A stretch of 35,334 nucleotides of DNA from a virus (taxonomy: Duplodnaviria; Heunggongvirae; Uroviricota; Caudoviricetes): positions 1 to 35,334 of IMG/VR virus record IMGVR_UViG_2778261179_000021; one strand, written 5' to 3'. The stretch's first letter is position 1; each line of letters starts with the position of its first letter. This document shows positions 2,964 through 35,334 of the stretch, piece by piece. The position numbers and the translations under genes are program-made. The notes beneath the pieces are model-generated. The model had not been told where the DNA came from. It saw nothing but the letters and a program-made list of their open reading frames with translations, and ran no database searches.

Positions 2964-2990
2964 AGGGACTCTTCGGAGTCCCTTTTTTAT
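2964..2990 (+). terminator. intrinsic terminator (AGGGACTC-TTCG-GAGTCCCT plus T6)
   Basis: 8-bp stem, TTCG loop, TTTTTT run; abuts the stop codon of the convergent minus-strand gene. Confidence 0.65.
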
Positions 2991-3928
2991 TGGCAGTAAG
3001 AAAAGTTAGTACCGTACATTTCATCATGAAGCATTGCAGCATTGCGTTTCTGTTCTTCTTCCTCGTCTACCGCATCACTAGAAAAATGAGATTTGCCCTT
3101 AAAAGAACGAAGCAATTGCAGTGCAGCCATCGGATCACGCATCACATCGATTTTCACTTCTACTTCATCATTTGCGGCCTCATCAGCCGCATTTTCAACT
3201 ACTGCCACCGGAGCAACTTCTTTAGCTTTCAGTTCTTCAATTTCAGCTTTCTGGGCTTCGATAATCTGGTCTTTTTCTTCCAGTGCAGCTTTCAGTTCTG
3301 CGATCTGTGCTTCCAGTGCAGCAAAGCGATCTTCTACAACAGGAGAAACAGCATTAACCTGTGCTTCCAGTTCCAGAAATGCTTCGCAAGATTCAATACG
3401 TTCTTTCTCTTCACCTTCATAAGCAACCAGTTCTACAACTTCTTTTTCGGTAGCGTGGCTGTTAAAGAATACAGCAAAGTAAGGATTGCCGGATTTAGTG
3501 AAGTTCAGTTTAGCTTTTCCGGTAACTTCTTTACGACGACCGAAGGTGATCTGGCAATCAGCGGTATCCTGAAAATCCATGTTAGGAGCGGAAACGATAG
3601 CAGTATCACCAGCAATCACCAGGTGGAACAGTTCAGAAGAGTTCTTAACGGTAAAGGTAACGATGTGGTCTACTGCAACGTCTTTAGCAGGTTTAACGCG
3701 GTCGATTGCTTTACGAATGCCGTTAGGCAGTTTACCGTCAACACCAAAGCCAGCCGCGATCAGTGCTTCACGATGTGCTTTAAAGCCAGCGAAAGCGGAT
3801 TTCTGCTGCGCAAAGGAAACATGAGCAACAACTTTCGGCTGAATCTTCTTGTTTGCTTCGGTGCCAAATTTGATAACTGCTTTAGCGTTGGTTACTTCGT
3901 TAGTGAAAAAGTTAGCGGAAAATAACAT
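2987..3928 (-). CDS. hypothetical protein with central coiled coil and acidic C-terminal region (313 aa)
   Basis: ATG at 3928 with GGAG RBS; long ORF; heptad-like region ...FAALEAQIAELKAALEEKDQIIEAQKAEIEELKAKE...; second gene of a leftward operon downstream of LexA-like boxes. Confidence 0.7.
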   Translation of the reverse strand: MLFSANFFTNEVTNAKAVIKFGTEANKKIQPKVVAHVSFAQQKSAFAGFKAHREALIAAGFGVDGKLPNGIRKAIDRVKPAKDVAVDHIVTFTVKNSSELFHLVIAGDTAIVSAPNMDFQDTADCQITFGRRKEVTGKAKLNFTKSGNPYFAVFFNSHATEKEVVELVAYEGEEKERIESCEAFLELEAQVNAVSPVVEDRFAALEAQIAELKAALEEKDQIIEAQKAEIEELKAKEVAPVAVVENAADEAANDEVEVKIDVMRDPMAALQLLRSFKGKSHFSSDAVDEEEEQKRNAAMLHDEMYGTNFSYCQ

Positions 3929-3970: not shown

Positions 3971-4004
3971 AAAAGCCCCCTTGTTGCCGCAAGGGGGCTT
4001 TTTT
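3971..4004. terminator. bidirectional intrinsic terminator
   Basis: 9-bp perfect stem GCCCCCTTG/CAAGGGGGC flanked by AAAA on the left and TTTTTT on the right. Confidence 0.6.
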
Positions 4005-4042
4005 ATTTTTAAAGCCATCATATAATTCTCAGTCAAAGTTGA

Positions 4043-4222
4043 TTACCAAACGGTAGCTTCAATCTTCACTTTAATGTCATATCGTTTTAGCAGTTTTCTA
4101 AAATCAGAGGGGTCAATCCCTTCTTCCTTCAAAACCGCCAGCTTGTCACCCTGCATCGCTTCAAAATAACGTTTAGCAATCGGGAGTAATACTTCTCGTG
4201 TGAATCGTACAGGTTTAGCCAT
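4043..4222 (-). CDS. small HTH-module protein (59 aa), paralog of the 7412..7645 and 7675..8280 proteins
   Basis: Internal ATG at 4222 preceded by GAGGGA RBS (track ORF starts further upstream at 4282); motif PVRFTREV...EEGIDPSDFRKLLKRYDIKV...IEATVW is shared with the 77-aa protein (RFTKEQ...HGISIAQFYKNMKKLDIKF...IVEATGF). Confidence 0.55.
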   Translation of the reverse strand: MAKPVRFTREVLLPIAKRYFEAMQGDKLAVLKEEGIDPSDFRKLLKRYDIKVKIEATVW

Positions 4223-4320
4223 TTTTAATCCCTCATTGTTAGGTTTAAAAAATCTTAAAAAAGAGCTTTTCGCTCTGAACAATTCTATTTATAAAATGTT
4301 TTTCGAAAAACCCTGTAAAA

Positions 4321-4342
4321 CCACTGTATATCCGATCAGTGG
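4321..4342. promoter_or_regulatory. LexA-box-like inverted repeat (CCACTGTATATCCGATCAGTGG)
   Basis: CTG-N10-CAG with a consensus-like left half ACTGTATAT; lies immediately upstream of a candidate minus-strand -35 (TTTACA) for the 4222 gene. Confidence 0.4.
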
Positions 4343-4405
4343 GAGCACGAATTGCTAAAGAGAAGATTAATAATTAATCAATCCGTACAATATTCAACCG
4401 AAAAA

Positions 4406-4444
4406 GCACTGTATATCTAACCAGTGCTGTATGAGTTAACAGTG
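4406..4444. promoter_or_regulatory. two overlapping LexA-box-like sites, including TGCTGTATGAGTTAACAGTG (CTGT-N8-ACAG)
   Basis: 4406..4427 GCACTGTATATCTAACCAGTGC; 4425..4444 matches the SOS-box core CTGT-N8-ACAG with the left half CTGTATGAG as in the E. coli recA box. Confidence 0.5.
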
Positions 4445-4580
4445 AGTCAGGAGATTTTCAGAAGTGAACAATCATTTTTCATGCATGTATTTATACACGA
4501 AAAAATCATGCTTATCATCTATATGGGGATTGTTTGGAAAATTTCAACCCTTACCAGTGATAAAAAGTATAAAATAGTTC

Positions 4581-4594
4581 TTGACACATGTCAA
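4581..4594. promoter_or_regulatory. operator-like imperfect palindrome TTGACACATGTCAA overlapping a -35-like TTGACA
   Basis: Outer arms TTGAC/GTCAA perfectly symmetric; TTGACA hexamer at 4581..4586. Confidence 0.3.
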
Positions 4595-4790
4595 CAAACA
4601 TGATCTAAGCGAGAGGTGACTATCAAAATTTTTGTTTGAAAATGGTAGATTAGGATTATCAACCTTTATAATCTATTATGGCACGGAGACCTTTTGATGA
4701 TTCCTTTTAAATCATTAGATTACGCCACTTTTTGGTGATTTTTTGGTTAAATAATATACAATAATTTTCTATCAAAATATTTGATGGGAA

Positions 4791-4986
4791 TTGCCCCCGA
4801 AATTCTGAATTTTTGCCCCCGAACAAAATCCCAAGATTCTACTATCCTATTTTTGCCCCTGAAACCTACTATTTTTGCCCCTGAAATTCTGGGAAACAGT
4901 GATTTTGCCCCTCATTTTTGCCCCTGAAATGCCAATAATTGCCCCTGAAAATCTAATTTTTGCCCCTGAAATTTTCCCCCGAAAAG
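4791..4986 (+). repeat. iteron array: about 9 direct copies of TTTTTGCCCCTGAAA
   Basis: Cores at about 4793, 4815, 4855, 4877, 4907 (degenerate), 4920, 4941, 4962, 4976 (degenerate), all in the same orientation, with spacings of mostly 21-22 bp or multiples; inside a 1.4-kb region lacking credible ORFs. Confidence 0.8.
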
Positions 4987-5118
4987 GATTGGTGAGAAAA
5001 ACTCTTTATAAAACATTAACTTGGGTGGGGGTAAAGGCGGGGGATTCGGCGTGCATAGATATTATATAACACATTCGCTACGCTCATGTGTAAAACCAAA
5101 AATAACCAAAAAGATATT

Positions 5119-5138
5119 AGGAGGGCTTTGCCCGACTG
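5119..5138 (+). repeat. 20-bp direct repeat copy 1 (AGGAGGGCTTTGCCCGACTG)
   Basis: Matches 5508..5527 at 19 of 20 positions; contains internal GGGC...GCCC dyad. Confidence 0.75.
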
Positions 5139-5507
5139 CGCGAAGCGCTAACCAATTACTTCTAGTAACAACTAATTTAAACTAGATGATACTAGATGGT
5201 CTTAGAAGGAATTAACTAGTTTGCTCGCTCGCTTCGCTCACTCTCAAACGTCTGCGACGCCACTGCGTGGCATCGAGAATCACTTTTGAAAGGATTTTCT
5301 TAGAAAGGGATTTAATACTAGTTACTAACTGATTCTAGTAAACGAACGAAGTGAGTAACAATCACTTTCTAGAAAGGTATTGGTATCCCTTCGGGATTGC
5401 AACCTTCGGTTGCTAAATTGCTTCCTGATTATTATTTCTCCAAAAGAAAGATTCTTATATTCTAAAGATACTTCTTCGTTTTGATGATGATTTAATCAAA
5501 ACTATGA

Positions 5508-5527
5508 AGGAGGGCTATGCCCGACTG
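5508..5527 (+). repeat. 20-bp direct repeat copy 2 (AGGAGGGCTATGCCCGACTG)
   Basis: Matches 5119..5138 at 19 of 20 positions; 389 bp downstream of copy 1. Confidence 0.75.
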
Positions 5528-5612
5528 AATACAATCACCTTTCATAATAACAAGAATTTTCTCTTTATAAATAATATTAGATTGATTCACTTTCTTTTAG
5601 AGGATTTCCACT

Positions 5613-6080
5613 ATGAACCATAAAATGACTACCACTACTCCTTTCATCCTGTTAGGTTTTGATGCTGATAGCTTCCACAATGACAAGTTAATGAAGATGT
5701 TCCGTGAACGTGGTTATAACATCCTTTTCAATTCCGATGAATCTCATTTCTCTAGTGCATGGTATGCCTTCCACCGTGATAAGAAGCCGACCATTGTTGT
5801 TAACGTCTTCACCGATGAAGAACGCTTAAAGTACCAGAATCTACCAGCAATTATTGTTCGTGATGATCTTCCGTTTGAAGTCCGTTCCGGTGACATTGAC
5901 CTGGGTAGCTTCGTTACTGTCTATGAACTGGATGAAGCAATGTTTAACTACGGTAAAGAAACCGCTCAGGAAGCCCAAGAACACGATGAAGAGGATGAGG
6001 AAAACGAAGACTACGCACCAATCTGTTTCTCTTCTCAGAATGGCTTCTACGGTTACGATGAAGGCTTAGATATGCTGTAA
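5613..6080 (+). CDS. acidic hypothetical early protein (155 aa)
   Basis: AGAGGA RBS; ORF rich in D/E with an acidic C-terminal stretch EAQEHDEEDEENEDY; first plus-strand gene after the non-coding hub. Confidence 0.65.
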   Translation: MNHKMTTTTPFILLGFDADSFHNDKLMKMFRERGYNILFNSDESHFSSAWYAFHRDKKPTIVVNVFTDEERLKYQNLPAIIVRDDLPFEVRSGDIDLGSFVTVYELDEAMFNYGKETAQEAQEHDEEDEENEDYAPICFSSQNGFYGYDEGLDML

Positions 6081-6440: not shown

Positions 6441-7271
6441 ATGAATACTGTTACTACTATGAATACTGCTGTTAAAACTGCTTCCGTGTCTCTGGTTGTT
6501 GATAACACCAAACCGCTGACCATGTCTACCCGTCAGATTGCTGAATTGACCGGAAAGAATCATAAGGATGTTATGCGTGATTTTCGTCGCATGATTGATT
6601 CTCTTGAAAAAGGAAGCGAATTAGCCGGGCGCAATTTTGCGCTGGGGTATTTTGTAGAATCTTCATATTTTGATAAGAATAATCAATCTCGCCCGATGTA
6701 TGAACTGGACGAAGATCTCTGTAATACTCTGGTTATGGGATACGATGCACCGCTTCGCTTCAAAATTGCTAAAGAATGGCGTTTGATGAAAGAAGGGAAA
6801 GCTAATGTTCCGGTTAATCCATATGAACACTTTGAAGAAACAGACTGGATCGAACTGGCGTTAAAGAAAACTCGCGAAAACAAACAACTGATTGAACTTC
6901 ATGTTCGTAAGTCTGTAGATAGCCATTCAATGACGCGTCTGTTAGGCGCTAAAAAGGGCGCTACGAAGGTTAAAGAAGCACTGACGGCCTTGCGTACTGC
7001 TGGATACATTGAGCGCGTCTATGATGAAAATAACAAGCCGTGTGGGTATGTTGCTAATGATTCCGCTTTACCGTTTTGCAGCATGAACGCTCACTATCAG
7101 CTTTCTTTTACTGTTGATGTGCTTCCGGTGTTGGTTGAATTTGGTGTTCTGGAAGAAGAACAAAAAGCAACTCTGAATCTTCCTAAGCCGAACAACACTA
7201 TTCTGATTCAAAATAAAGCGGCTGAACGTCTCCGTCAGAATGTTGGATCACTGGAAGTCTTCGGACTGTAA
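6441..7271 (+). CDS. Rha-family phage regulatory protein (antirepressor-like)
   Basis: N-terminal motif MSTRQIAELTGKNHKDVMRDFRRMIDSLEK is characteristic of the phage Rha domain; 276 aa; followed by an intrinsic terminator. Confidence 0.7.
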   Translation: MNTVTTMNTAVKTASVSLVVDNTKPLTMSTRQIAELTGKNHKDVMRDFRRMIDSLEKGSELAGRNFALGYFVESSYFDKNNQSRPMYELDEDLCNTLVMGYDAPLRFKIAKEWRLMKEGKANVPVNPYEHFEETDWIELALKKTRENKQLIELHVRKSVDSHSMTRLLGAKKGATKVKEALTALRTAGYIERVYDENNKPCGYVANDSALPFCSMNAHYQLSFTVDVLPVLVEFGVLEEEQKATLNLPKPNNTILIQNKAAERLRQNVGSLEVFGL

Positions 7272-7411: not shown

Positions 7412-7645
7412 TCAAAAACCTGTTGCTTCTACGATCTGACCATCACCGATCTGAACATAGAATTTAATGTCTAACTTCTTCATATTCTTATAGAATTGGG
7501 CGATTGAGATCCCATGTTCACTAAGAATCTGTTCTTTCGCTTCCTTACCACGATCCGCTGTATAGTAAGCGTAGGCAATATCAGCCATCTGTTCTTTAGT
7601 AAATCGTGCCGGACGACCGCGAGTAGCTTTAGTAGTCATAGTCAT
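7412..7645 (-). CDS. small HTH-module protein (77 aa), paralog of the 4043..4222 protein
   Basis: ATG at 7645 with GGAGAAA RBS (track ORF begins at an upstream GTG); TRGRPARFTKEQMADIA...HGISIAQFYKNMKKLDIKF resembles psq/resolvase-type HTH seen in phage DNA-binding proteins and some small terminases. Confidence 0.6.
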   Translation of the reverse strand: MTMTTKATRGRPARFTKEQMADIAYAYYTADRGKEAKEQILSEHGISIAQFYKNMKKLDIKFYVQIGDGQIVEATGF

Positions 7646-7674
7646 TTTCTCCAAATTAAAGTGAATGTTCACCT

Positions 7675-8280
7675 TTATTTAGAGGACTTAGATTTTATAG
7701 GAAAAAGTTCTCCATCGTCAACTGACATAAAGAACTCGACCTTAATCTCGTACTTCTTCAACCGTGAATAATATGTACCCCGACTTATATCAACCTTGCG
7801 AAGCACTTCAAAGAAGGATTTAGGATCGTTGTAATAGTGGCTGTACTTCACGTTAGCGAGTTCTACAAACAATTCCCTTGTATCACCATATCCTTTCTTA
7901 AAAGCTATGTTACGTGGCATTGTAATAGCCATATTATCCCTTGTCTGCTTCAACACTTCTCTGATCGGCTTCCACTGCAAACGATAGATAGGACCGTCAT
8001 CAATGCGATAATAACGCTTGATATCAAAATCAAACCAATCTCGGACTCTCCGAAACTCTGTATGTGATGTTCTATGCTTCTTAAAGAAGTTGTGAACGTC
8101 TCTATAGCCATTATCACGGTAAAATTCTATTAAAATCTCTTTCGCTTCCTCACGGCTAAACCCAGATGTTGTGTAATCGGTCTTTAAGTGCTTATGTTTT
8201 ACTGGCAAACGATATTCATGATCGGTACAACAAGACAAGGCTAATTCTACTTCATCTCTTTGTTGCTGATTAATTAGCAT
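7675..8280 (-). CDS. protein with two tandem HTH-like modules related to the small HTH paralogs (201 aa)
   Basis: ATG at 8280 with AAGGGGG RBS; internal duplication (…FFKKHRTSHTEFRRVRDWFDFDIKRYY… and …FFEVLRKVDISRGTYYSRLKKYEIKVEFF); transcribed divergently from the large terminase gene. Confidence 0.65.
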   Translation of the reverse strand: MLINQQQRDEVELALSCCTDHEYRLPVKHKHLKTDYTTSGFSREEAKEILIEFYRDNGYRDVHNFFKKHRTSHTEFRRVRDWFDFDIKRYYRIDDGPIYRLQWKPIREVLKQTRDNMAITMPRNIAFKKGYGDTRELFVELANVKYSHYYNDPKSFFEVLRKVDISRGTYYSRLKKYEIKVEFFMSVDDGELFPIKSKSSK

Positions 8281-8367: not shown

Positions 8368-10272
8368 ATGAAACTGATTTCGAACAAGGCCAAATTAAAA
8401 AAGATTCTCAGAAATGTTTCTGCTGCAATTCGCCCACCTAAAGCGATGAAACCTAGTGAATGGGTAGAGGCTAATGTAGTTGCAACCGATGGTGTTAAAG
8501 CCGGATCTCTTATTAAATTGCATCACTTCCAACGTGGGATGATGGACGCGATTACCGAAGATAAGCGAAAGATTGTCATGAAATGCTCGGCGCAGTTGGG
8601 TAAAACTATGGTGCTCAACGGTATTATCTTTCACAGGATCGCCACCAATCCAACCAATATAGGTGTTTTACAAGCGAACGTTCGAGAATTGAACTCATGG
8701 ATCGCGGGTAAGGTGAAGCCAGTATTAGAGGCAACCCCAGAATTAAAGGCGATGATCACCGACAAATCGGATCGCAATGCCGTTAATAACACATCGCAGA
8801 TACAGCTTAGAAATGGGTCGTTTCTTTATTTCATGTCATTGAATAGTCCATCCCATCTCCGGGGTAAGACTTTGCCGTTGATCCTTGCAGACGAGGTGGA
8901 TGGTTGCGACGAATCAGACGAAGGGAACCCGATCCAGCTAGCGGAACAACGTGCTTCCACTTTCGGGGAAGATGCAAGGATCGTAATTGCTTCTACTCCA
9001 ACGTCGCGGGATGGGGCGATAAACCAACAATACGAACTCTCAGATAAACGAAAATACTATGTTCCATGCCAGCATTGCGGACACCGACACGTAATGGAAT
9101 GGAGTAACGTTCATTTCGATTGGCATCAAGTTAACGGTAAATCACTGCCTAACCCAGATACAGCCGTTTATCGTTGCCCGTCATGTGAAACTGATTGGAC
9201 AGAAGGGGATCGCCTACGTGCTGTTGCTAAGGGAGAATGGATCGCCACCGAACCTAATGCGGAAGTAATCGGTTTTCATGCTAACCGCCTTATGTCTCCG
9301 TTTAGTTCTATCCGTGCGTGTGTGGTGGATTTTGCTGATAGCTACGCGAATATGTCACTGGCAACGTTCTATAACACTGTCTTAGGTGAAACCTTCGATG
9401 ATCTTAACGAAGACCGCACAGCCGACGAACTGGAAACGCTGAAAACTGACATTAGCCTAGACAACATCCCCGATGATGTTCTGGCTCTGGTTGGTGGTGT
9501 TGACCAGCAAAAAGACCGTCTGGAATCTACCTTGCTGGGTATTTCTCGTAAAGGGCTATGCGTAGTTGATCACCGATCATTCTATGATGTGAACTGCGAA
9601 CGCCACGAATCGCCAGCATACAGCCAGCTTTACAACTTCCTGAAAGCGAAATTCTATACCCGATCCGGTCAACGAATCCCAATGCTATCTGCTTTCGTGG
9701 ACTCATCAAACGGACGAGCTACGCAAGTGATCTACCGATTCTGCACACAATGGCAAAACCTAACAGCCATTAAAGGGGCAAGCAATGTTGATGCACCAAT
9801 CCTTCCGGTAAAAGACACAAGAACGGGCGGTTTTACTCTCAAAATTCTGGGCGTAAACAACCTTAAGACGATGATCCGTGAAATGATTAACCGGAACTTG
9901 AGAGATGGCGATCCTCACACTGTTTTCCAGATTGGCGACGTTCCTGATGACTATTGCGAGCAATTGCTTTCTGAACAGTTGAAACGGCAGGGTAATACCA
10001 CACGTTGGGTAAAAGTTGGTCAGCAACGAAACGAGGCGCTCGACTGCCTGGCTTATTCCTATGCTGCTTCTCGCCATGTACTCAATAAAATGTCATGGGA
10101 AAAACTCGAAGCCATCAAAGATAGTTTGAACCGTGAACCAGAAGAATCCGTAGAAGCTCCTAAATCGCAATCTGACGAGAAAATAGAAGAAACTAAGCCA
10201 ATCACACGACCACAACGTCAAAACATCGCCAGACGCCCAAATAGAGGCCGTAGCTGGGTAACATCGTTCTAA
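8368..10272 (+). CDS. terL: terminase large subunit, lambda GpA family
   Basis: 634 aa; by-eye matches to lambda gpA landmarks: SAQLGKT Walker-like segment, zinc-ribbon-like PCQHCGH...RCPSCETDW, FYNTVLGETFD (lambda FVNTTLGETWE), QRNEALDCLAYSYAA (lambda RRNEALDCFVYALAA). Confidence 0.85.
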   Translation: MKLISNKAKLKKILRNVSAAIRPPKAMKPSEWVEANVVATDGVKAGSLIKLHHFQRGMMDAITEDKRKIVMKCSAQLGKTMVLNGIIFHRIATNPTNIGVLQANVRELNSWIAGKVKPVLEATPELKAMITDKSDRNAVNNTSQIQLRNGSFLYFMSLNSPSHLRGKTLPLILADEVDGCDESDEGNPIQLAEQRASTFGEDARIVIASTPTSRDGAINQQYELSDKRKYYVPCQHCGHRHVMEWSNVHFDWHQVNGKSLPNPDTAVYRCPSCETDWTEGDRLRAVAKGEWIATEPNAEVIGFHANRLMSPFSSIRACVVDFADSYANMSLATFYNTVLGETFDDLNEDRTADELETLKTDISLDNIPDDVLALVGGVDQQKDRLESTLLGISRKGLCVVDHRSFYDVNCERHESPAYSQLYNFLKAKFYTRSGQRIPMLSAFVDSSNGRATQVIYRFCTQWQNLTAIKGASNVDAPILPVKDTRTGGFTLKILGVNNLKTMIREMINRNLRDGDPHTVFQIGDVPDDYCEQLLSEQLKRQGNTTRWVKVGQQRNEALDCLAYSYAASRHVLNKMSWEKLEAIKDSLNREPEESVEAPKSQSDEKIEETKPITRPQRQNIARRPNRGRSWVTSF

Positions 10273-33846: not shown

Positions 33847-33882
33847 AAAAACGCCCCTACCGCGTATTATAACGATAGGGGC
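33847..33882 (-). terminator. putative intrinsic terminator between the secreted-protein gene and the recombinase
   Basis: GCCCCTA ... TAGGGGC 7-bp stem with 16-nt loop, preceded on the + strand by AAAAA. Confidence 0.35.
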
Positions 33883-33896
33883 TAGGTGATTAAAGA

Positions 33897-34316
33897 TTAA
33901 AGAATTTCACGGCAGCTAATCAGGGAATAAGACGTATCACCTTTTTTAACATCAAATATAGGCGCACCATCTACAGAATGCAGATATTTGATGTAGGATT
34001 TACCATCTTCGGAACCATAATATTCTTCTTTCTCGTTCTTATCTTCTTTCAGTTTTGGGCTTTTGATTGTTTTATCAAATACCGGATCGTTGAAAGCAAA
34101 TTGACTATTATCATCATTCACTCGAACCTTTACACCGATAAAACCACGGTATTTGCCAGACGGCGCATGATAATAACGATCGCCATCACTCAGGTAGCGT
34201 GTATCATCTCCTTTATATTCGAAGTAGGAATTGCACACATAATAGGTATAGGTATTAGCATTCGCAGCACCAACCAAACCCAGAGCAAGAACAACACCAG
34301 CGATAATCTTTTTCAT
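33897..34316 (-). CDS. secreted hypothetical protein (139 aa, signal peptide)
   Basis: ATG at 34316 with AAGAGGA RBS; MKKIIAGVVLALGLVGAANA signal peptide; Tyr/Asp/Lys-rich mature region. Confidence 0.6.
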   Translation of the reverse strand: MKKIIAGVVLALGLVGAANANTYTYYVCNSYFEYKGDDTRYLSDGDRYYHAPSGKYRGFIGVKVRVNDDNSQFAFNDPVFDKTIKSPKLKEDKNEKEEYYGSEDGKSYIKYLHSVDGAPIFDVKKGDTSYSLISCREIL

Positions 34317-34361
34317 AGTAGAATTTCCTCTTGTTGTTTGAATTACGATATATTTATATCA

Positions 34362-34484
34362 TTAAAAGTTAATGCTAATAATCAGACCAAACACAACCGC
34401 ACCAATCAAATCAATCCAGTTAATACACAGCGAATATTCTTTCTTGAATGTCTTAGATGAAATGCCATCATGAAATTGTTTCAT
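34362..34484 (-). CDS. small hydrophobic peptide (40 aa)
   Basis: GGGGTGAG RBS 5 nt upstream of ATG at 34484; MKQFHDGISSKTFKKEYSLCINWIDLIGAVVFGLIISINF with a C-terminal TM-like segment; absent from the track. Confidence 0.35.
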   Translation of the reverse strand: MKQFHDGISSKTFKKEYSLCINWIDLIGAVVFGLIISINF

Positions 34485-34487
34485 TGC

Positions 34488-34568
34488 TCACCCCATACTA
34501 ACGACAATATAAGAAAGACTAATCATGGTTGTGAGACTACCTCCCACGAATGAGATAAAAGCTAACAT
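34488..34568 (-). CDS. small hydrophobic peptide (26 aa)
   Basis: GGAG RBS 9 nt upstream of ATG at 34568; MLAFISFVGGSLTTMISLSYIVVSMG; its stop lies 3 nt before the next micro-ORF start. Confidence 0.3.
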   Translation of the reverse strand: MLAFISFVGGSLTTMISLSYIVVSMG

Positions 34569-34583
34569 GTTTGATTCTCCATT

Positions 34584-34610
34584 TAAAAAGCGGTGGGAAT
34601 TACACCCACC
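34584..34610 (-). terminator. intrinsic terminator downstream of the 145-aa gene
   Basis: GGTGGG-AATTACA-CCCACC hairpin; on the minus strand it is followed by GCTTTTT. Confidence 0.5.
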
Positions 34611-34624
34611 AAATTAGAAATTAA

Positions 34625-35062
34625 TTAAGCGCGAACGATGGTCAGAGTATCCAGCAAACCTTTTTCGTATAATTCGAAACACGTTTTATATTGCTCAATC
34701 TTCCAACCGTAGCGGGTGATCTTATTCAGTAGAATAATCACGGTATTCTCATCTAGGTATTGTCCTTGCTTACCAATTACATATGACTCGCGGGATAGTC
34801 TCAGCTTACGGAAACCTTTAACACCTAATTCCTTAGCCACCGCTTTAACCTCGTTAATCTCACCTTCTGCGGCTACATATTCAGCGTCGATAATCTCAGT
34901 TGATGATCTCAGTGCTACCAGAACTAAGGCCATTGCTTCTTCTTCGGTACGAGCAACACCAGCTTTCTCGAAAGTCATCTCACCAAATTTACGAGTCATA
35001 ATATTGAACATTGTCTGTATTCCGTTTAAATCGGCGGGAATAGTACCCGCCAAATTAGACAT
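34625..35062 (-). CDS. hypothetical protein (145 aa)
   Basis: ATG at 35062 overlapping the upstream stop (TAATG coupling); no recognisable motif. Confidence 0.6.
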   Translation of the reverse strand: MSNLAGTIPADLNGIQTMFNIMTRKFGEMTFEKAGVARTEEEAMALVLVALRSSTEIIDAEYVAAEGEINEVKAVAKELGVKGFRKLRLSRESYVIGKQGQYLDENTVIILLNKITRYGWKIEQYKTCFELYEKGLLDTLTIVRA

Positions 35063-35334
35063 TACTTCTTGCTGATAAACTCTTTAGCGATAAAGTTGAT
35101 TACTTCTTTCAGCTTCTTGTCTGTATCGATGCACGCTGGTAATTCTTCTTTAATATCCTGCGGCAGATACACATTGCCTTTAAAGTGGAGGAAACCATCA
35201 TTACCAATCATGTAGGAGAACATCCATTCACAATCGTTATCCGCTTCCCAGAACGCCACGGTCTCATCCCCAATCAAGGTAATGTCCATGTTGCGACGCG
35301 CTGCGTAGTTGATGATTGCTTTACCGATGTTCAT
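35062..35334 (-). CDS. hypothetical protein (90 aa or longer; start codon at the window edge)
   Basis: ORF runs to the last base of the window (…GATGTTCAT is the reverse complement of ATGAACATC); may extend upstream beyond the window. Confidence 0.5.
   Translation of the reverse strand: MNIGKAIINYAARRNMDITLIGDETVAFWEADNDCEWMFSYMIGNDGFLHFKGNVYLPQDIKEELPACIDTDKKLKEVINFIAKEFISKK

Follow-up and report, generated by a model that had tools for sequence, protein, structure and literature searches.

The question raised by positions 5119-5527 of the virus record IMGVR_UViG_2778261179_000021 is what a densely structured, gene-free stretch of DNA is doing between two divergent genes of a temperate phage. 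The record, all 35,334 nucleotides (nt) of which were analysed and are called the window below, has genes for a large terminase of the lambda gpA type, a portal protein, a fused protease and capsid, an endolysin and an integrase of the serine type. A sequence-only reading of the 409 bases had noted a direct repeat at their two ends and an abundance of CTAG words and small hairpins, and had proposed either a small inserted element or a structured RNA gene. For comparison, 58 related loci were gathered from IMG/VR, NCBI assemblies, RefSeq Escherichia coli genomes and metagenomes, giving 46 distinct upstream sequences.

Read against these relatives, the flagged bases are two unrelated non-coding modules joined by a conserved linker, and the repeats are not scars of an insertion, because the left repeat is confined to a single lineage, the DNA between the repeats is missing from no relative, and one relative (L037) lacks a different stretch, 5364-5536. 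By analogy with known iteron origins, the left part is most likely a replication-origin or early-control region of the prophage. The right part is predicted to be a separately movable promoter and stem-loop cassette of the promoter early stem-loop (PeSL) type, placed upstream of the real proximal promoter. The account favoured here, tentatively, is that the segment is an origin or early-control region whose hairpins act at the level of DNA, once that DNA has been unwound. The coordinates of its features are collected in Table 1.

Two modules, a linker and a pair of repeats

The direct repeat that first drew attention is real. AGGAGGGCTTTGCCCGACTG at 5119-5138 and AGGAGGGCTATGCCCGACTG at 5508-5527 agree at 19 of 20 positions, differing by one base, and are the only matches to the 20-mer in the window at three or fewer mismatches, with none in shuffled sequence. 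The similarity in fact covers 36-37 nt (local score 36, against 16.9 +/- 2.3 and a maximum of 25 in shuffles), beyond which it is not significant, and the longer unit is composed of TAAYCAAAA, a -10-like box and AGGAGGGCWTTGCCCGACTG, that is, a -10-like box followed by a 4-bp GC stem and GACTG. The count of seven CTAG tetramers (5162, 5182, 5192, 5216, 5318, 5335 and 5369) was also borne out, and makes this the densest 220-nt stretch of a window that averages 1.75 per kb, as were the tandem ACTAGATGAT/ACTAGATGGT at 5181-5200 and the lack of any credible open reading frame (ORF) of 20 or more codons on either strand. Seven hairpins with GC-rich stems and 3-nt loops lie in the segment, out of 26 in the whole window, where 2000 shuffled versions of the segment averaged 0.17, with 2 the highest count.

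The limits of the modules emerge from comparison of lineages, which are distinguished by the type of their iterons and labelled W (that of the window), A, C and D. DNA identity with the other lineages ends at about 4786 and resumes at 5280, such that relatives share 4000-4786 and everything from 5280 onward, and 4786-5280 is replaced together with the gene at 2987-3928, which encodes an orphan protein of 313 residues. The left 160 bp of the flagged segment belong to this specificity module, and the right part does not. An inserted element bounded by the direct repeats does not survive this comparison: none of the 46 unique relatives lacks exactly the DNA between the repeats, the left copy is found in the W lineage and is absent from A, C and D, and the break at about 5280 falls in mid-segment. 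What can be kept of the small-element idea concerns another sub-segment, about 5364-5536, which is a true presence/absence cassette. It is missing from L037, of the W lineage, with the junction inside a short CAATC repeat, and along with it L037 is without hairpin pair 3, the tract rich in A and T, the putative promoter P1 and the right-hand repeat copy.

The right repeat is otherwise present in nearly all relatives. Its hairpin reads GGGC-TTT-GCCC (19 sequences), GGGC-TTTA-GCCC (10), GGC-GAA-GCC (9), TGGC-TTTA-GCCA (3, a compensatory change), GGGC-TAT-GCCC (2) or GGGCTAGCCC (1), and every variant is followed by GACTGAAT. The loop of the left hairpin is GTA (10), TTT (6) or TTTA (2), making GGGC-GTA-GCCC the commonest form; at the corresponding place the A lineage has AATA-CGGC-GTA-GCCG-T, with GCGCGAAGCGC still following and with neither AGGAG nor GACTG. 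AGGAG has also become ATGAT in three relatives (L044, L053 and L058). Because the stem is kept, once by compensation, the loop is free and AGGAG is lost in these three, the conserved unit is the stem plus GACTG, and not the Shine-Dalgarno (SD)-like box or the start codons. The SD-like AGGAGG and the micro-ORFs described earlier do exist in the window, where they have 3 and 7 codons, and are not conserved: they disappear from most variants, since the start codon comes from a loop that is free to change among relatives (TTT, TAT, GTA, GAA, TTTA), and on these grounds the micro-ORF reading is rejected. A longer upstream ORF from ATG 5504 (39 codons) was discarded too, as it runs from 4 to at least 59 codons in two frames among relatives and has no SD. 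Probably the left copy arose by a short conversion or template switch into a pre-existing hairpin, in the W lineage only. The 20-mer is not dispersed among viruses: IMG/VR holds 10 matches, nine of them from this prophage family, and the match in L007, an unrelated high-GC phage, is put down to chance.

The spacer at 5149-5230 is unconserved in the A lineage, and 5148-5197 ranks among the least stable 1% of 50-mers in the window. Among relatives the ACTAGATGAT unit is present once, twice or three times, and in one relative a run of 26 A replaces AAAACCAAAAA just before the left repeat (L004, L019 and L015 compared); the change in tandem copy number and the A run look like signs of replication slippage in the region. 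Repetition of another kind starts at the linker. The word (A/T)TCAC(T/C)TT, or WTCACYTT, occurs at 5279, 5361, 5534 and 5586, often followed by GAAAGG-like words, so that 4 of its 21 window matches, each of them on the + strand, fall within 5279-5593. The number can reach five or six in relatives, and the last copy here (5586) stands directly ahead of the ribosome site of the 155-residue orphan's gene. These copies are probably binding sites for a conserved protein.

Table 1. Features of the segment and its neighbourhood, in window coordinates
Feature	Position	Strand	Description
313-residue orphan gene	2987-3928	-	lineage-specific N-terminal domain, coiled coil, shared acidic C-terminal tail
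Small leftward gene	4043-4282	-	313-residue orphan gene comes next
Divergent-gene gap	4283-5612		1.3 kb; holds flagged segment at its right end
LexA boxes (three)	4324-4339, 4409-4424, 4427-4442		CTGTATATCCGATCAG, CTGTATATCTAACCAG, CTGTATGAGTTAACAG; upstream of small leftward gene
Near-consensus strong leftward promoter	4594-4566	-	TTGACA-17-TATACT inside palindrome TTGACATGTGTCAA
Rightward terminator-like site	4723-4745		
Iteron array	4789-4984	+	8-9 direct TTTTGCCCCTGAAA, spaced about 21-22 or 43 bp
G-rich box	5024-5050	+	inverted degenerate iteron
Left part of segment	about 5077-5280		far arm of iteron swap module: iterons, inverted iteron, A/T tract, hairpins
DnaA-box-like word	5087-5095	-	TTTTACACA; W lineage only
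Left repeat copy	5103-5138	+	TAACCAAAA, -10-like GATATT, AGGAG, hairpin GGGC-TTT-GCCC (5123-5133), GACTG
Pair 1, left hairpin	5123-5133		GGGC-TTT-GCCC
Pair 1, right hairpin	5138-5148	+	GCGC-GAA-GCGC; GCGAAGC mini-hairpin motif on top strand
Spacer	5149-5230		AT-rich, CTAG-rich; four of the seven CTAG; 10-bp tandem
GCGAAGC motif	5231-5237	-	ahead of pair 2
Pair 2	5249-5259, 5259-5271	-	CGTC-TGC-GACG, GCCAC-TGC-GTGGC; bottom-strand loops GCA
Shared linker	5280-5363	+	common to most of the family; homology with other iteron lineages resumes at 5280
Linker words	5279, 5361	+	two of four same-strand ATCACTTT, plus GAAAGG words
Cassette	5364-5536	+	173 bp; twin hairpins, AT-rich tract, -35/-10 boxes, small hairpin and GACTG
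Pair 3	5385-5397, 5399-5413	-	ATCCC-TTC-GGGAT, GCAACC-TTC-GGTTGC, one base between; bottom-strand loops GAA
RB49-homologous stretch	5425-5505	+	matches intergenic DNA upstream of RB49ORF130w
Candidate P1	5481-5508	+	TTGATG-16-TATGAA; aligns with RB49 TTGGTT-17-TATATT
Right repeat copy	5493-5527	+	hairpin GGGC-TAT-GCCC (5512-5522), then GACTG
Candidate P2	5547-5575	+	ATAACA-17-AATAAT inside invariant TTATAAATAATA; least stable DNA in window
155-residue orphan gene	5613-6080	+	first rightward gene
Rha/Ant-like gene	6441-7271		next after 155-residue orphan gene
Mini-hairpin sequences of interest			GGCGAAGCC, CCCGAAGGG, GCCACGCAGTGGC

Iterons, mini-hairpins and a candidate origin

The left module is built around the iteron array, whose motif has 8 matches in the window, all of them inside the array, against 0.67 expected. 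At least four repeat families occur among relatives, namely TTTTGCCCCTGAAA (the window and the W lineage), AAACCTACACTA, a TCCCCG-rich type and GATGTACA. In some W-type loci the W array is preceded by two or three repeats of the A type. In relatives the neighbouring G-rich box reads GAGGGGCAAAAG, the reverse complement of TTTTGCCCCT. No match to the IHF consensus was found, and one DnaA box, in one lineage only. Two other identities proposed for this DNA were rejected. A cos site is contradicted by a G-rich box that is lineage-specific when the terminase is not (L009), and by the deletion or replacement of pair 3 in relatives; resemblance of GATATTA...TAACAC near 5059-5073 to the phiX174 gene A origin is attributed to chance, as it is unconserved in other lineages and the 313-residue protein has no HUH motif.

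The array is linked to a protein by co-variation. The type of N-terminal domain carried by the 313-residue protein matches the type of iteron in 49 of 49 loci (23 W/W, 24 A/A and 2 C/C), and a conserved 860-bp stretch lies between the swapped gene and the swapped array. In other lineages the gene has a different N-terminal domain joined to the same coiled coil and C-terminal tail. Because N-terminal type tracks repeat type without exception, the 313-residue protein very probably binds the array. It has no match in Pfam, PHROG, NCBIfam or PDB sequences, an exhaustive HMMER search against 1.8 billion representatives returned 12 matches only, and a search of 5.8 billion sequences yielded only near-identical copies from E. 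coli and Shigella. AlphaFold models reached a predicted local distance difference test (pLDDT) score of 46 from the single sequence and 62 from six sequences, and gave no informative fold match.

With 8-9 phased direct repeats, a protein type matched to the repeat type and adjacent, easily melted DNA (the very AT-rich 4736-4785 flanks the array and ties for the least stable 50-mer in the window), the left module has features of an iteron origin. The order of its parts, iterons, inverted iteron, AT-rich DNA and palindromes on opposite strands, is like that of lambda ori and RSF1010 oriV. In lambda ori, the iterons are followed by an AT-rich tract and then by a GC palindrome. More generally, phased repeats, an inverted copy, AT-rich flanks, palindromes beyond them and a lineage-matched protein gene recall lambda ori, R6K gamma, P1 oriR and pSC101. 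Unlike these iteron origins, the putative initiator here is an orphan that lacks a winged-helix signature, its gene is 860 bp away on the other strand behind a conserved LexA-box spacer, and the DnaA box is present in only one lineage.

The hairpins provide the second line of evidence. The seven form three adjacent pairs (5123/5138, 5249/5259 and 5385/5399) and a single hairpin at 5512, and five of them present, on one strand, a G-N-A loop closed by C-G: GAA at 5138 (top strand), GCA at 5249 and 5259, and GAA at 5385 and 5399 (these four on the bottom strand). The window has 16 such C-GNA-G hairpins, counting both strands, and 5 lie within these 430 bp (P ~1e-6). The bottom strand also has bare GCGNAGC heptamers, at positions 5077 and 5231. 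In the W and A lineages the hairpins share one polarity, top strand beside the iterons and bottom strand further right, and this polarity survives replacement by unrelated sequence. For instance, the A lineage has the non-homologous ACGCC-TAC-GGCGT, with GTA as its bottom-strand loop, in place of pair 2, and some relatives replace pair 3 with TGC-TTC-GCA followed by GACGCTC-N3/4-GAGCGTC. At 5138 the loop is GAA (28) or GTA (10) in the W and A lineages, and the stems of pair 3 are identical in 39 unique relatives, with TGC and TTT as loop variants. A long-range helix between 5134-5147 and 5230-5243 was considered and set aside: one compensatory pair separates the lineages, but an A-to-T change in the loop that breaks the helix is common.

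Mini-hairpins of the GCGNAGC type are extraordinarily stable as DNA and far less so as RNA, and are found at the primase starts of G4, St-1 and alpha3, in RSF1010 ssiA (CCGAAGG) and in the hairpin promoters of N4 (PMC13037366). The stems of the segment amount to -1.3 to -6.5 kcal/mol as RNA by nearest-neighbour parameters, most without an adjacent U-run, and the common right-repeat variant GGCGAAGCC is worth -1.3 kcal/mol as RNA, yet is exactly the GCGAAGC motif. As in G4, St-1, alpha3 and RSF1010 ssiA/ssiB, the hairpins here are of the GCGNAGC or C-GNA-G class, and, as at the primer start of G4, a CTG stands 2-3 nt beyond a hairpin. The G4 origin record reads GGCGAAAGCC...GTCC-CTA-CTG, the primer starting at the T of CTG, and both repeats read hairpin-GA-CTG. 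The arrangement also recalls RSF1010, in which ssiA and ssiB stand beside iterons and GC-rich and AT-rich blocks, in that opposite-strand hairpins lie a few hundred base pairs from the iterons. In plasmid R1 the G-site downstream of oriR is a primase-dependent single-strand initiation signal. The likeness to G4 has its limits: a tight group of three hairpins like that of G4, within about 110-140 nt, is lacking here, the left repeat having one adjacent hairpin and the right repeat lying about 95 nt from pair 3, CTG follows only the two top-strand repeats, and the phage encodes no primase or helicase.

On the origin reading, the initiator would open AT-rich DNA and the C-GNA-G hairpins would fold out of the resulting single strands. 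Once folded, they could keep off the protein that binds single-stranded DNA (SSB) and mark fixed start points for the host primase, and they might also serve as barriers keeping transcription out of the iteron array. The primase-start idea is drawn from the resemblance of hairpin-GA-CTG to the G4 complementary-strand origin. Its bolder form, in which the orphan iteron binder is the sole recognisable replication protein, the strand-polarised mini-hairpins are entry or start signals for host primase and part of this hairpin and promoter hardware is exchangeable with virulent T4-like phages, is rather doubtful; were it true, leading-strand starts would be fixed beside the prophage origin. If the mini-hairpins are signals for primase or SSB, a mechanism of single-stranded phages and of IncQ and IncFII plasmids would extend to a temperate double-stranded DNA phage.

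A number of observations weigh against an origin with hairpins that act as DNA. Origin function is assigned to the iterons from analogy and co-variation, and family and fold searches placed the 313-residue protein in no known Rep/O initiator family. The best candidate for unwinding, 4736-4785, is on the opposite side of the iterons from the hairpins. In a third lineage the loop of the hairpin is 4 nt long, and one relative has this loop flipped; no CTG stands 3' of the bottom-strand hairpins, and GACTG is missing after the A lineage's left hairpin. On the bottom strand of every lineage a T-rich run comes after the leftmost hairpin, an arrangement expected of a leftward terminator. Neither pair 3 nor the right repeat is essential, as they can be deleted without loss of the proximal promoter, and the RB49 counterpart of the cassette lies at a promoter, a position that suggests a role in transcription for this part.

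The movable cassette and competing explanations

The right-hand cassette contains an AT-rich tract (5416-5480, 22% GC) and, within the stretch listed in Table 1, is homologous to intergenic DNA of phage RB49. Identity is 78-79% over 81 bp in 59 records of RB49-like, T4-type coliphages (Krischvirus), and the alignment with RB49 reaches a score of 71, where dinucleotide shuffles give 18.1 +/- 2.5 (z = 21). The RB49 counterpart is flanked by a late gene and an orphan gene, with a pair of adjacent GC hairpins with 3-nt loops ahead of it. Nucleotides 1-50000 of RB49 yielded no additional copy of these 81 bp, and the prophage has no homologue of RB49ORF130w.

PeSL cassettes, which combine a sigma-70-like promoter with stem-loops, mediate indels in RB49/phi1 and other T4-like phages (Arbiol 2010, PMC2839356; Comeau 2014, PMC4122927). 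The cassette of the window resembles them in uniting an AT-rich tract, candidate sigma-70-like boxes and GC stem-loops in a single intergenic unit that is an indel among close relatives, and the homologous copy in RB49 is assigned to the PeSL class by its fit to the published anatomy. The differences are equally plain. One full and one 36-nt partial copy are found here, against about 50 in the PeSL system; the cassette does not end in the SD and start codon of an ORF, another promoter coming between it and the gene; and its stems are of 4-6 bp with 3-nt loops, compared with the GGGG...CCCC stems and 4-nt loops typical of RB49. The homologous copy in RB49 is itself atypical of that phage, whose usual PeSL stems are longer and have 4-nt loops. 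Furthermore, the genome that carries the cassette here is a 33-kb temperate prophage with a serine integrase, and PeSL cassettes are known from T4-like phages.

The promoters of the region bear directly on what the cassette could do. Candidate P1 is weak: its -10 box (TATGAA or CATGAA) lacks the final T, its spacer is 15-17 nt in relatives, and a consensus scan did not list it. Candidate P2 is better conserved, lies downstream of the right repeat and is kept in L037. The cassette ends about 75 nt ahead of ATG 5613, with P2 and the real SD (GAGGA) in between. Because P2 survives in L037, the cassette is dispensable, and at most an auxiliary promoter or insulator. Upstream and downstream variants of the region recombine around ATGAAGGAGG and the hairpin. 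In seven relatives (L016, L019, L024, L029, L031, L041 and L043), a 41-nt insertion, TTTCAAGTACAGACCAGTTTTGGACTCTACCAGATCACTC, between the right repeat and the proximal promoter is another small indel module. At 5563-5574, TTATAAATAATA contains TATAAATA, the T4-type late promoter consensus, and similar words, CT(C/A)TTTATAAA, are present at 4285 and 5002; such T4-late-type words may be a coincidence in AT-rich DNA. A MotA-box reading of TTGCTTCC at 5418-5425 was rejected, the spacing to any -10 box being wrong.

These findings give substance to the best of the alternatives, in which the segment is purely transcriptional punctuation and its hairpins are RNA terminators or insulators and also the stem-loops at the 5' ends of two PeSL-type promoter cassettes in tandem. 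The left repeat would then be a weak or vestigial promoter core, the right repeat would drive or boost the operon of the 155-residue orphan and Rha, and the hairpins would stop transcription from entering the iteron array and neighbouring operons. This account is possible, though on the unlikely side. It draws on the 81 bp of RB49 intergenic homology, which fit PeSL anatomy (PMC2839356) and stand upstream of an orphan gene, and on the cassette's behaviour as an indel, a property it shares with those of the PeSL type. Some relatives have, instead of pair 3, a 7-bp stem (-9.5 kcal/mol) with a U-rich tail, terminator-like on the + strand, and L044 has a perfect TATAAT 22 nt upstream of its right hairpin, an arrangement that would place that hairpin in a 5' leader. 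The T-rich run on the bottom strand after the leftmost hairpin, found in every lineage, takes the form ACGGC-UAC-GCCGU-AUUCUUUUU in the A lineage. However, the low RNA stability of most stems and their lack of an adjacent U-run do not suit terminators, the enrichment and polarity of GNA loops have no rationale at the level of RNA, P1 has the defects already described and is outranked by the downstream P2, and typical RB49 PeSL stems are longer, with 4-nt loops.

The structured RNA gene proposed from the sequence alone fared less well, and a non-coding RNA that regulates replication or immunity, in the manner of P4 CI RNA, P1 c4 or plasmid antisense RNAs, is quite improbable. Such an RNA might run rightward over about 290-350 nt, beginning at the inverted iteron or the left repeat and reaching pair 3 (5385-5413), or leftward over about 200 nt, for example from a TTGTTA-18-TAGAAT promoter at 5361-5332 as far as the T-run and hairpins of 5148-5100. 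Both strands do fold far better than shuffles (z = -5.2 and -6.0 for the two strands), and this part of the proposal stands; the strong folding reflects the density of palindromes and favours neither strand, self-complementarity being equal on both. The region is devoid of ORFs, hairpin positions are kept through sequence replacement, a single change, from GGGC/GCCC to TGGC/GCCA, being compensatory, a 9/12 promoter match lies at 5361-5332 of the minus strand, and GCGAAGCG (5140), CGCTTCGC (5232) and GAACGAAGTGAG (5344) are mutually complementary, like seqA, seqB and seqC of P4. On the other hand, the covariance models of Rfam 15 gave no match at gathering score in the window and, in 4200-5700, only chance-level matches at E<=10; only local hairpins are conserved, and the A-to-T change in the GAA loop, which breaks long-range pairing, is tolerated in 10 of 38 sequences. 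The -35 box of the minus-strand promoter and the third complementary box are lost in many relatives, there is no strand-specific G-U evidence, and the middle 80 nt vary between lineages.

A third possibility, that the repeats are binding sites, in double-stranded DNA or in RNA, for a phage regulator, either operators looping out 389 bp or nut-like boxB hairpins for an antiterminator, is very unlikely. Its attractions are two copies on the same strand, one of them at a candidate promoter, the conserved flanks AGGAG and GACTGAAT, and other repeated words (ATCACTTT four times, GAAAGG and CTAG) that suggest several protein sites. As in lambda nut, P4 seqA/seqB/seqC and P1 c4, short repeated motifs with a small GC hairpin are found near an early promoter of a temperate phage. 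Unlike in those systems, the loops are unconserved, no boxA precedes the hairpin and both copies are on one strand; unlike in P4 and P1 c4, there is no match to the Rfam C4 model and the complementary boxes are not kept in all relatives. Moreover, three of the four iteron lineages seen have no left copy, the right copy can be dispensed with, AGGAG has become ATGAT in the three relatives named above, no N-like arginine-rich protein is encoded downstream, and the loop varies freely (3-4 nt, five sequences), unlike that of boxB, which the protein recognises.

Scarcely believable, finally, is a mobile element resembling a miniature inverted-repeat transposable element, or a recombination insertion, with the 20-bp repeats as target-site duplications: a 19/20 direct repeat does flank 369 bp of non-coding DNA, but no relative (0/46) lacks that exact stretch, the breaks fall at about 4786, 5280, 5364 and 5536, the left repeat is lineage-specific, terminal inverted repeats are lacking, and there are no other copies in the window and, outside the locus, one chance match only in IMG/VR.

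The prophage family and its surroundings

Exact and near-exact copies of the phage reside in the chromosomes of E. coli and Shigella sonnei, and E. coli PI7 (CP074033) is one such lysogen. The region is present in 57 of 5426 complete E. coli genomes, and the 313-residue protein is encoded on well over a thousand public E. coli and S. sonnei contigs, which makes this a common prophage family. One copy is inserted in ycdX, which the prophage interrupts in strain PEC41 (L022); others adjoin a host peptidase-U32 gene with hicA/hicB-like genes beside it. RefSeq annotates only hypothetical proteins across the region, and the whole early region of the family consists of orphan genes and unannotated DNA. 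No isolated phage close to the window was found, megablast against phage records being without a match, and searches of genome contigs by the exact twin-hairpin pattern and by the portal protein gave no match either. A scan of the sequence for tRNA and transfer-messenger RNA (tmRNA) found nothing.

Each component of the segment is of a known kind. What is new is a widespread prophage family with an unannotated early region, a PeSL-like cassette in a temperate phage that is held in common with a virulent T4-like phage, and a strand-polarised cluster of mini-hairpins beside an iteron array. The map now provides the family with specificity repeats, a predicted binder, swappable parts and hairpins that may mark a replication or transcription boundary. 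The shared 81 bp suggest that promoter cassettes described only in T4-like phages also enter, or derive from, temperate prophages of the same host.

The leftward side of the divergent gap has a regulatory layout of its own. The LexA boxes are kept in most relatives, an alternative left-hand version having repeated AGCACGAATTGCTAAAG words instead, and they suggest direct SOS control of the operon that encodes the 60-residue and 313-residue proteins. In RefSeq the small leftward gene is given an internal ATG as its start (59-60 residues). Just downstream of the LexA boxes, and overlapped by the strong leftward promoter, lies a small + strand ORF (4464-4603) with an AGGAGA ribosome site and a hydrophobic stretch, MLIIYMGIVW, whose frame differs among relatives. 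A leftward transcript from that promoter would stop at a terminator-like hairpin at 4276-4262 (- strand), ahead of the gene for the 60-residue protein. Judging from this arrangement, the ORF and the promoter may make up either a type I toxin/antisense pair under SOS induction or a leader that is long and attenuated.

A short C-terminal motif (..F/Y..L.KKY/L-D/E-IK..) is common to the orphans encoded at 4043-4282, 7412-7672 and 7675-8280, all on the - strand, and occurs twice in the 201-residue member of the three, which suggests that several early genes use a small DNA-binding domain of paralogous origin. The window has a GC content of 41%, well under the E. coli value. Flanking or cargo DNA is apparently included at its ends (1-1400 and 33850-35334), with a HicB-like gene (1-351) and a gene for an LprI-like lipoprotein (584-1363). 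In the large terminase gene, the centre (8416-10030) has no match at the DNA level in most relatives, where the flanks are 84-92% identical, and L009 matches throughout; the difference reads as a mosaic replacement within an essential gene, unlinked to iteron lineage.

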